A DNA stretch of 60,238 bases from Stx2-converting phage 86. Every line of letters begins with the position of its first letter. The first letter of the stretch is position 1. The stretch lies in the sequence record NC_008464.1. One strand, 5' to 3'. A program made the position numbers. Of the stretch, positions 6,001 through 9,000 are shown piece by piece.

Positions 6001-9000
6001 AACCCTCTTTGGGCTGGTTATTCCTGTGCGCAGGGTTCATCACTAAAAGGAAATAACCGATGAATATGATGACCGTGCCGTTTCACGGCGATTCTCTTTA
6101 TGTGGTTAACCATAACGGCGAACCATACGTTCCCATGAAACCTGTCGTTGCGGGGATGGGGCTGGCCTGGCAATCACAGTTGGCTAAGTTAAGACAGCGT
6201 TTTGCGTCAACTATAACGGAAATCGTTATGGTTGCTGAGGATGGGAAACGACGCAATATGGTGTCCCTGCCGCTTCGAAAACTTGCAGGCTGGTTACAAA
6301 CCATCAATCCCAACAAAGTAAAACCCGAAATCCGCGGCAAGGTAATCCAGTATCAGGAAGAGTGTGACGATGTTCTCTATGAATACTGGACGAAGGGTTT
6401 TGTCGTTAATCCCCGTCGAATGAGTGTGATGGAAGAACTCAATCAGGCTTGCGCTGACATGAAACGGGATAAAAACATTGCCAGTGTGTTTGCTACCGGG
6501 CTGAATGAGTGGAAACAGGTTAAATCCGCGCATGTATCAAAAATCCGCACATTGATAAACGAAGCGAATCTGCTGATTGATTTTGTCCTGGCTGATACAG
6601 GCAAAGGGAAAATAACAAAGGCGGATTGATGGAGTGGTGGCTAATGATATCGGATAAACTCATAACGCTGGCGAAGATCCTCTGTGTAATCGTCGGCATT
6701 TCATTTTTAGTCATGCTGGTTGCCATTTTCTTTTCCACCGCCTGGCGAGTCCTGACGTTATCGGGACTGGTGGGGTGAAAGAGAGATGAACCGTGTTCTG
6801 TGTGTGGTGATTATTGTCCTGCTGGTAGCCTGTGGTGCGCTTAGTCTGGGGCTGAATCATTACCGCGATAACGCCATAACCTACAAAGAGCAGCGCGATA
6901 AAAAAGTCAGTGAGCTGGAGCTGGCAAATGCAACCATTACTGATATGCAGCAGCGCCAGCGTGATGTTGCTGCACTTGATGCCAGATACTCGAGGGAATT
7001 AGCCGATGCGAGAGCTGAAAATGAAACTCTTCGCGCTGACGTTGCCGCTGGTTACCGCAGCCTGCGGATCAACGCCACCTGTCCAGGTCCCGTGCGTGAA
7101 GCCACCGGCACCGCCCGCGTGGATAATGCAACCGGCCCCCGACTGGCAGACACCGCTGAACGGGATTATTTCACCCTCAGAGAGAGGCTGATCACTATGC
7201 AAAAACAACTGGAAGGAACCCAGAAGTATATTAATGAGCAGTGCAGATAGAGTTGCCCATATCGATGGGCAACTCATGCAATTATTGTGAGCAATACACC
7301 CGCGCTTCCAGCGGAGTATAAATGCCTAAAGTAATAAAACCGAGCAATCCATTTACGAATGTTTGCTGGGTTTCTGTTTTAACAACATTTTCTGTGCCGC
7401 CACAAATTTTGGCTGCATCGACAGTTTTCTTCTGCCCAATTCCAGAAACGAAGAAATGATGGGTGATGGTTTCCTTTGGTGCTACTGCTGTCTGTTTGTT
7501 TTGAACAGTAAACGTCTGTTGAGCACATCCTGTAATAAGCAGGGCCAGCGCAGTAGCGAGTAGCATTTTTTTCATGGTGTTATTCCCGATGCTTTTTGAA
7601 GTTCGCAGAATCGTATGTGTAGAAAATTAAACAAACCCTAAACAATGAGTTGAAATTTCATATTGTTAATATTTATTAATGTATGTCAGGTGCGATGAAT
7701 CGTCATTGTATTCCCGGATTAACTATGTCCACAGCCCTGACGGGGAACTTCTCTGCGGGAGTGTGCGGGGATAATCAAAAACGATGCACACCGGGTTTTC
7801 TCATTTTTCACGAGATGGGAGCGATTTCCCGCGAAGCCGCCTGTCCGGTGCGGTGGTGGAAGAAACCGGATAAAACAACCGCATTGTGCAAATATCGATC
7901 AAATATGGTGCTGCTGTGTGAAATCTGAAAAATCACAGCGGTCATTATGCATCAGTTTTTAACACAGGACGTCAGAACGTGACATGGCAAAGCTGGACTG
8001 GAAAAAGCTGGAGCAGGCATTCCGACGCGAACATGCCGAAACGGGAATAACATTACTGGACTGGTGCCGGAAGAAAAAGATTAATTACAACACCGCCAGA
8101 ACCCGTATAAAAATGGGCAAAATCGATCATGAAATTGATCATAAAACCGATCATGAAATCGATCATGACATCTCAGATGAAGAACCCTGCAATGACGCGG
8201 GTTCCGGCGATGAAAAATGCGCAAAAAACTCTGAAAAAAACTGCGCAAATTCGGCAGAAACGAAACGGATTCGTGGTTCCCGACTTTTACCACCTTCAAA
8301 CGCTTTTTCTCAGCGAAACACCCACGCCGTAAGACACCGTGGATATGCGAAGTATCTTGAGGCAGATAACCTCATGGATGATGCGTCCGACATGGTGCTG
8401 TTCGATGAACTGGTGTTCACCCGGGCCCGCGCACTTTCAGTAACTAAGGCACTTAAAGGGATGTTCGCCGACCTGGAAGAGGCAACTGACGTGGAAACCC
8501 GTGTTGCTCTTTACGACAAAATACTCAAAGCTGAACAGGCCCTTGACCGGAATATTGCCCGTATCGAGTCAATTGAACGCTCATTGCTGACGCTGGACGT
8601 CCTGGCTGAGACAGCACCAAAACTTCGTGCTGACCGGGAAAGAATCAACGCCGCCAGAGATAAACTCAGAGCTGAAACCGATATTCTGACCAGCCAGCGT
8701 CGGGGCGTTGTTACGCCTGTCAGTGACATCGTGTCATCGCTGCATGAAATGAGTAATTCGGGGAGACTGGATGACATTCCGGAAGAATGAACCGCGATGT
8801 GATGAGCCGTCAGAAATGACCGAGGCTGAACAACGTCTGTTCATCATGACTAAACTGAGCAATCCCTGGTGGCGGCTCAATCATCTCTACAAAATACAGA
8901 ACGAAAAAGGTGAACTGGTCACCTTCAGAATGCGACCGGCGCAGCGCCAGTTGTTCCGGAGCATGCACAATAAAAATATTATCCTGAAAGCGCGCCAGCT

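Follow-up and report, generated by a model that had tools for sequence, protein, structure and literature searches.

Does the short open reading frame (ORF) that lies inside the Rz gene of Stx2-converting phage 86 encode a protein of its own, and if so, which one? The stretch analysed here comprises 60,238 nucleotides of the phage (sequence record NC_008464.1; one strand, 5′ to 3′) and is referred to below as the window. We assign the ORF, at 7006–7191 on the plus strand, to the Rz1 o-spanin of a lambdoid Shiga-toxin (Stx) phage, wholly contained within the +1 frame of the gene for the i-spanin Rz, with a probability of about 0.96. The gene specifies a 61-codon lipoprotein precursor plus a TGA stop, and the assignment draws on the ORF list, a Pfam match, a comparison with Rz1 of phage lambda and the existing annotation of the same DNA in record AP004402.1. 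Overlapping genes of this kind, with Rz1 nested in Rz, are textbook material, and the allele found here is already known down to its coordinates. The value of the finding is thus that of an annotation safeguard only, with no new biology.

The Rz1 frame and its product

The Rz1 ORF opens with ATG, ends with TGA and is fully nested in the 154-codon ORF of Rz, whose i-spanin gene (6786–7250, plus strand; 154 amino acids) was assigned by Pfam and by its similarity to lambda Rz. From the start of Rz to the start of Rz1 is 220 nucleotides (220 mod 3 = 1, that is, the +1 frame), and from the end of Rz1 to the end of Rz is 59. The first-pass annotation of this DNA had likewise placed Rz1 wholly in the +1 frame of Rz at 7006–7191, which our coordinates confirm. 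Lambda Rz1 has the same geometry, with 220 nucleotides from start to start, the +1 frame and 59 nucleotides from end to end (lambda reference NC_001416: Rz 45966–46427, Rz1 46186–46368), and the 220/59 arrangement is found in phage 21 and in 933W too (PMC6139136, Table S4).

Family assignments were made for both frames. The Rz1 ORF matches Pfam family PF06085 (Rz1) with 78.5 bits (E = 3.1e-22; gathering cut-off 27.9) and PHROG 3198, ‘Rz-like spanin’ (E = 1.3e-30), and shows 69% identity with lambda Rz1 (YP_001551744.1) over its full length (BLASTP, E = 9e-27). The surrounding Rz frame matches PF03245 (Phage_lysis/Rz) with 167.8 bits (E = 1.6e-49) as well as PHROG 13, and is 70% identical to lambda Rz, also over the full length. 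The lambda Rz/Rz1 pair was the comparison that the first-pass annotation had proposed; its outcome bears the proposal out, with similarity to Rz1 and a lipobox both found.

The complete Rz1 product is MRELKMKLFALTLPLVTAACGSTPPVQVPCVKPPAPPAWIMQPAPDWQTPLNGIISPSERG; with the mature part set apart, the precursor is written MRELKMKLFALTLPLVTAAC / GSTPPVQVPCVKPPAPPAWIMQPAPDWQTPLNGIISPSERG. Residues 1–19 (7006–7062, plus strand) form the predicted signal peptide, delimited from the sequence, its hydropathy and the alignment with residues 1–19 of lambda Rz1. It comprises an n-region, MRELKMK, and an h-region, LFALTLPLV, followed by T-A-A. In a rule-based check the n-region was basic and the h-region uncharged (Kyte-Doolittle 2.07), with T-A-A directly ahead of Cys20. 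The TGC codon of Cys20 (7063–7065, plus strand) aligns with lambda Cys20 and marks the predicted lipidation site and first mature residue. The lipoprotein signal expected by the first-pass annotation is therefore present, as a lipoprotein-type leader with its lipobox Cys, and a database remark agrees: the Rz1 signal peptide of phage H-19B, which like its lipobox is identical to that of the window, carries the comment ‘good lipoP hit’ in SpaninDB. The two Rz1 proteins differ at three C-terminal residues.

From Cys20 onwards the mature protein has 42 residues, 11 of them Pro (26%), in keeping with the proline-rich mature part described earlier. The +2 residue is Gly21, not Asp, and the +3 residue is Ser22. 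Asp at +2 is an inner-membrane retention signal for lipoproteins; with Gly in its place, Rz1 is therefore predicted, by the Asp+2 rule, to be sorted to the outer membrane. Further along, the codon at 7093–7095 (plus strand) encodes Cys30, which by alignment is the equivalent of lambda Rz1 Cys29, the residue of the homodimer disulfide (PMC5295617); the lambda disulfide Cys is thus conserved, and a disulfide through Cys30 is predicted from this equivalence. The motif PPAPP (7102–7116, plus strand) aligns with the penta-proline stretch P32–P36 of lambda.

Lambda Rz1 and the window's Rz1 thus share a signal peptide cut before Cys20, a dimerising Cys and a proline-rich region, and their last 16 residues are identical (DWQTPLNGIISPSERG). 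The differences are local. The window's protein has 61 residues against 60 in lambda, owing to one extra residue in the linker, which reads GSTPPVQVP in the window and TSKQSVSQ in lambda; the lipobox is TAAC in place of VVGC, and the proline stretch PPAPP in place of PPPPP.

For functional residues, the reference was a near-saturating mutagenesis study of both lambda spanins (PMC5295617). Of the Rz1 positions at which substitution abolishes lysis in lambda, the window retains M1, C20, P32, P33, P35, P36, I39, P42, P44, W46, L50, I54 and E58. Only two mutation-sensitive positions are changed, both in the signal peptide (M12 to T and G19 to A); T is compatible with the h-region and A with the −1 position of the lipobox. 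In lambda, substitutions of C20 abolish lysis and P32, P33, P35 and P36 are essential, while P34A is tolerated (PMC5295617). The sole change in the penta-proline stretch, from lambda P34 to Ala35 of the window, is precisely the tolerated substitution.

The Rz partner is equally well preserved. An N-terminal transmembrane domain (TMD) spans approximately residues 4–22 (Kyte-Doolittle maximum 2.95, in the 19-residue window beginning at residue 4), and Cys99 and Cys153 are the counterparts of C99 and C152 in lambda. Across the 27 lambda reference positions, made up of 24 mutation-sensitive ones together with C99, Y127 and C152, the window's Rz is identical at 25; the other two are K-to-R changes. 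The coiled-coil positions of lambda Rz are also conserved in the alignment.

Limits of the assignment and competing readings

Several observations count against this reading, in that they limit it; nothing in the evidence contradicts it. The function of this exact Rz1 allele is predicted from homology. An NCBIfam scan of Rz1, Rz and a 50-residue ORF just upstream of Rz returned no model matches, a blank that speaks neither for nor against membership of the Rz1 family. The remaining points concern the length of the ORF, its lipobox, its start codon and its treatment in one public record, and each is taken up below with the alternative that it touches.

As to length, a +1 ORF opening with ATG and at least 61 codons long was present in 6931 of 20000 recodings that permuted the synonymous codons of Rz, and in 9019 of 20000 that redrew them from the codon usage of the window. 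With 35–45% of Rz recodings carrying an ORF as long, length was rejected as evidence for Rz1. The same figures favour the view that the +1 ORF is spurious, a by-product of the amino-acid composition of Rz that codes for nothing, and so does an unrelated +1 open stretch of 63 amino acids that three related phages carry further upstream, in the 5′ half of their Rz genes. What chance does not readily supply is the lipoprotein signal. An N-terminus of this type, defined as a basic n-region, an uncharged h-region and a lipobox-like tetrapeptide with its Cys at residue 15 or later, arose in just 10 and 9 of the 20000 recodings in the two schemes (~0.05%).

Conservation speaks against a spurious ORF as well. 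The comparison set consisted of the window and 14 further Rz loci from phages of E. coli, Salmonella and Klebsiella, at ~69–94% DNA identity to the window. The homologous +1 ORF was retained in 15/15 together with the lipobox Cys. In every locus it opens with a start codon and a hydrophobic leader and has, besides that Cys, a proline-rich block ahead of AW(I/A)M, and an LN(G/S)II motif; the WQTPLNGII motif is likewise kept in 15/15. The two frames also leave a codon-position signal. The third positions of Rz codons are the second positions of Rz1 codons, and among 11 lambda/933W-type sequences their variability was 0.154 in the overlap versus 0.325 in the remaining periplasmic domain (Mann-Whitney p = 1.3e-5), as against 0.283 versus 0.434 (p = 1e-4) for all 15 sequences, these p-values being indicative only, as the compared sequences are related and mosaic. 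In the same codon alignment, the first and second positions of Rz showed no reduction inside the overlap. Suppression of Rz third positions specifically in the overlap is what a second, selected coding frame would be expected to leave, and by the retention of ORF and Cys in all 15 loci together with the third-position pattern, both overlapping frames qualify as being under purifying selection. Because of the conservation and codon-position evidence, the view that the +1 frame codes for nothing is effectively refuted; mutations in the Rz1 frame of lambda, moreover, abolish lysis (PMC5295617). We give that view practically no weight.

The extra constraint might instead be sought on the other strand, where an antisense ORF of 92 amino acids (6999–7277, minus strand) covers the same DNA. 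Were this ORF, and not Rz1, the relevant gene, it would itself account for the suppressed variability. It is longer than Rz1 and has been annotated in one GenBank record (AP004402.1, as ‘hypothetical protein ORF-78c’). Its open length, however, varies from 51 to 148 amino acids among the 15 loci (66 in lambda), its start would fall in the intergenic region between Rz and the adjacent bor gene, and the conservation pattern follows the Rz1 frame. As its open length is not maintained across loci, the antisense ORF was rejected as an alternative gene. Most probably it is a shadow ORF, and the chance that it is the gene under selection here is negligible.

The lipobox of Rz1 departs slightly from the norm. 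The first-pass annotation had given it as LVTAAC; the string is indeed present, though the lipobox proper, from −3 to +1, is T-A-A-C. Set against the strict consensus [LVI][ASTVI][GAS]C quoted by Kongari et al. (PMC6139136), the −1 and −2 residues fit, and Thr at −3 falls outside [LVI]. Several spanin lipoboxes are deviant yet functional (PMC6139136). Because such cases are documented, and because the allele is 100% conserved in many named Stx phage isolates, Thr at −3 is no reason to doubt Rz1. There is a slim chance that the Stx allele differs functionally from lambda Rz1, in that Thr at −3 together with PPAPP might tune lipoprotein maturation or membrane fusion. If so, an altered rate of Rz1 maturation or fusion would shift the timing of lysis and of Shiga-toxin release.

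The start codon can be read in two ways. The first ATG, at 7006, aligns with Met1 of lambda Rz1, and a Shine-Dalgarno-like GAGGG (6992–6996, plus strand), read from the sequence and putatively functional, lies within the Rz coding sequence 9 nucleotides 5′ of it. SpaninDB records GAGG for H-19B also, whose upstream sequence is identical. A second in-frame ATG follows at 7021, with its own GAGAG about 6 nucleotides upstream, and is a possible minor or alternative start. Rz1 would then be real, with initiation at 7021 giving a 56-residue precursor (MKLFALTL...) with a minimal n-region. Both ATG codons are kept in related loci, and either would give the same mature lipoprotein. Against initiation at 7021, a Met1-to-Lys change at the aligned first ATG of lambda abolishes lysis (PMC5295617), both the AP004402.1 annotation and SpaninDB use the first ATG, and the GAGGG lies 9 nucleotides ahead of 7006. 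We consider initiation at 7021 improbable and retain 7006 as the start of Rz1.

The public record of this locus is uneven. In AP004402.1, from Stx2 converting phage I, the DNA is identical to the window's Rz/Rz1, and an ‘Rz1 protein precursor’ is annotated at bounds that map exactly to 7006–7191. Phage ‘86’ appears in Kongari et al. 2018 (PMC6139136, Table S4) as embedded, with the i-spanin at 6785–7250, the o-spanin at 7005–7191 and frame 1; once the starts are read as zero-based, these are the Rz and Rz1 coordinates of the window. The label ‘established biology’, which the first-pass annotation had attached to the overlap, was therefore right. On the other side stands NZ_AP018802.1 (E. coli, RefSeq, annotated with PGAP, the Prokaryotic Genome Annotation Pipeline; locus L003, 2687–3151), where identical DNA carries only a ‘lysis protein’ (Rz) and Rz1 is omitted, an observation that rests on the one record examined. 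Several GenBank phage records matching the segment 6600–7300 are also without a separate Rz1 entry.

The missing annotation looks like a systematic gap. A survey of Stx phages found Rz/Rz1 in 277/279 Stx prophages, with the embedded Rz1 absent from its maps owing to automatic annotation (PMC8136144), and 196/528 o-spanins were unannotated in the spanin survey (PMC6139136). Flagging the Rz1 ORF guards against its dismissal as a spurious overlap, and also keeps Rz from being taken as a complete spanin alone.

It could also be argued that the two spanin genes no longer function and are decaying remains in a defective prophage. Additional genes interrupt the lysis cassette in both the S–R and the R–Rz interval. 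Spanins are, as known from lambda, dispensable for lysis in shaken laboratory culture. However, both frames are intact, with no frameshift or stop seen, and the critical residues are present. At least 25 phage records share the 701-nucleotide segment 6600–7300 with 100% identity, and 83 with at least 99%; the full identity extends to dozens of independently isolated Stx phages, named isolates included. Complete terminase, portal and capsid ORFs lie downstream in the window. A defunct remnant is thus very improbable. The segment was, in addition, matched in 4609/5426 complete E. coli genomes.

Relatives and proposed action in lysis

The Rz1 proteins of 933W, H-19B and Stx2-converting phage I belong to the ‘Lambda’ family of SpaninDB. 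PA16 (locus L004), taken here as representative of the 933W-type allele, differs from the window at 8/61 residues, mostly in the signal peptide, and has the lipobox VSAC. At a greater distance stand the P22-type Rz1 proteins, which are paired with gp15 (phage L, phi191 and As3). Like the window's Rz1 they are encoded by an embedded +1 lipoprotein ORF in an Rz homologue, and they share the proline-rich stretch followed by an AW-x-M motif; they are far more divergent, and their C-terminus differs (LNSIITVSEVE...). In Klebsiella phage Kp4882-3, phi191, As3 and phage L, Rz1 has the lipobox Cys only, without the second, dimerising Cys, and the Rz partners in these phages retain two periplasmic Cys.

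Unrelated spanins perform the same task, disruption of the outer membrane. These include LysB/LysC of P2 and PseT.3/PseT.2 of T4, whose genes are overlapped or separated, and the unimolecular gp11 of T1. They share with Rz/Rz1 a topology in which an outer-membrane lipoprotein is combined with an inner-membrane anchor, but their gene architecture differs from that of an embedded Rz1 and their sequences are unrelated. In the 2018 spanin survey, no family mixed embedded members with other architectures (PMC6139136).

The mechanism proposed for the window's Rz1 is taken over from lambda; what is observed here is the internal start at 7006 and the GAGGG ahead of it. The late transcript that covers S, R and Rz would also be translated from this internal start. 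The 61-residue precursor would be exported and lipidated at Cys20, and signal peptidase II would cut off residues 1–19. Rz1 would then homodimerise via Cys30 and bind Rz, a dimer with an inner-membrane anchor and a periplasmic coiled coil, at its C-terminal, distal end, to give a complex that spans the periplasm. Once holin and endolysin have cleared the peptidoglycan mesh, these complexes would collapse and bring about fusion of the inner with the outer membrane, a step that would complete lysis and free the phage and, in this phage, Shiga toxin.

A consensus scan of 3600–7800 for promoters and terminators gave counts not above those in shuffled sequence, and no promoter-like site was found before Rz1. 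The lack of such a site fits translation from the late transcript.

The lysis cassette and flanking genes

The holin, lysozyme and Rz/Rz1 genes all lie on one strand, forming a lambdoid lysis cassette with intercalated genes; those on either side of R, which separate it from S and from Rz, set the cassette apart from that of lambda. The first gene of the cassette, S, encodes a P21-type holin of 71 amino acids (3773–3988, plus strand; Pfam Phage_holin_2_1, PF04971, E = 9e-33). R encodes a 177-residue lysozyme (5252–5785, plus strand; Pfam Phage_lysozyme, E = 2.1e-24) with a weakly hydrophobic N-terminus. This endolysin is probably of the signal-arrest-release (SAR) type, and Stx-phage endolysins have been described as SAR-type (PMC8136144).

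Between S and R lies an insert of 1.26 kb (3989–5251) that carries a DUF1327 protein gene (3993–4799, plus strand; 268 amino acids; Pfam) and, on the opposite strand, a 104-residue ORF (4809–5123, minus strand) to which no function is assigned and which matched phrog_1853 only, with no Pfam or PADLOC match. Parts of this insert are matched by 98 phage records, none of which covers 80% of it, and the insert looks like a variable mosaic cargo slot within the lysis cassette. Window positions 4300–5300 proved not homologous to the part of Stx2 phage I that contains its holin.

Two further genes separate R from Rz. One encodes a P22_AR_N / ORF11CD3 ‘Ant’-like protein of 189 amino acids (6060–6629; Pfam). 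The other is the 50-residue ORF included in the NCBIfam scan, which has a single TMD, matches phrog_4906 and has no function assigned (6626–6778); it stops 8 nucleotides short of Rz. Given its place directly before the spanin genes, such a small membrane protein could have a part in lysis.

The window begins with the toxin genes: stx2A (1–960; 319 amino acids), whose start is the window's first base, and stx2B (972–1241). A SASA-family esterase of 631 amino acids with DUF1737, SASA and DUF6645 domains, nanS-p-like, follows at 1727–3622. The start at stx2A, the length of 60,238 nucleotides and the agreement of the Rz/Rz1 coordinates with the entry for phage ‘86’ (PMC6139136, Table S4) together suggest a complete Stx2 phage genome. 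Coverage of positions 1–20000 by any one phage record did not exceed 82%. Downstream of the spanin genes, the bor lipoprotein gene (7282–7575, minus strand; Pfam Lambda_Bor, E = 2.8e-30) is convergent with Rz, as in lambda, and its DNA is nearly identical to that of lambda.

This near-identity begins within the spanin genes themselves. Identity to lambda is ~75–80% upstream of 7135, and there are just 4 mismatches over 7136–7600, a lambda-like stretch that takes in the 3′ ends of both spanin genes and continues through the intergenic region and bor. A mosaic recombination joint thus lies at ~7135/7136, inside the doubly coding Rz/Rz1 segment. If the joint does fall within the overlap, spanin modules would be swappable there without functional loss.

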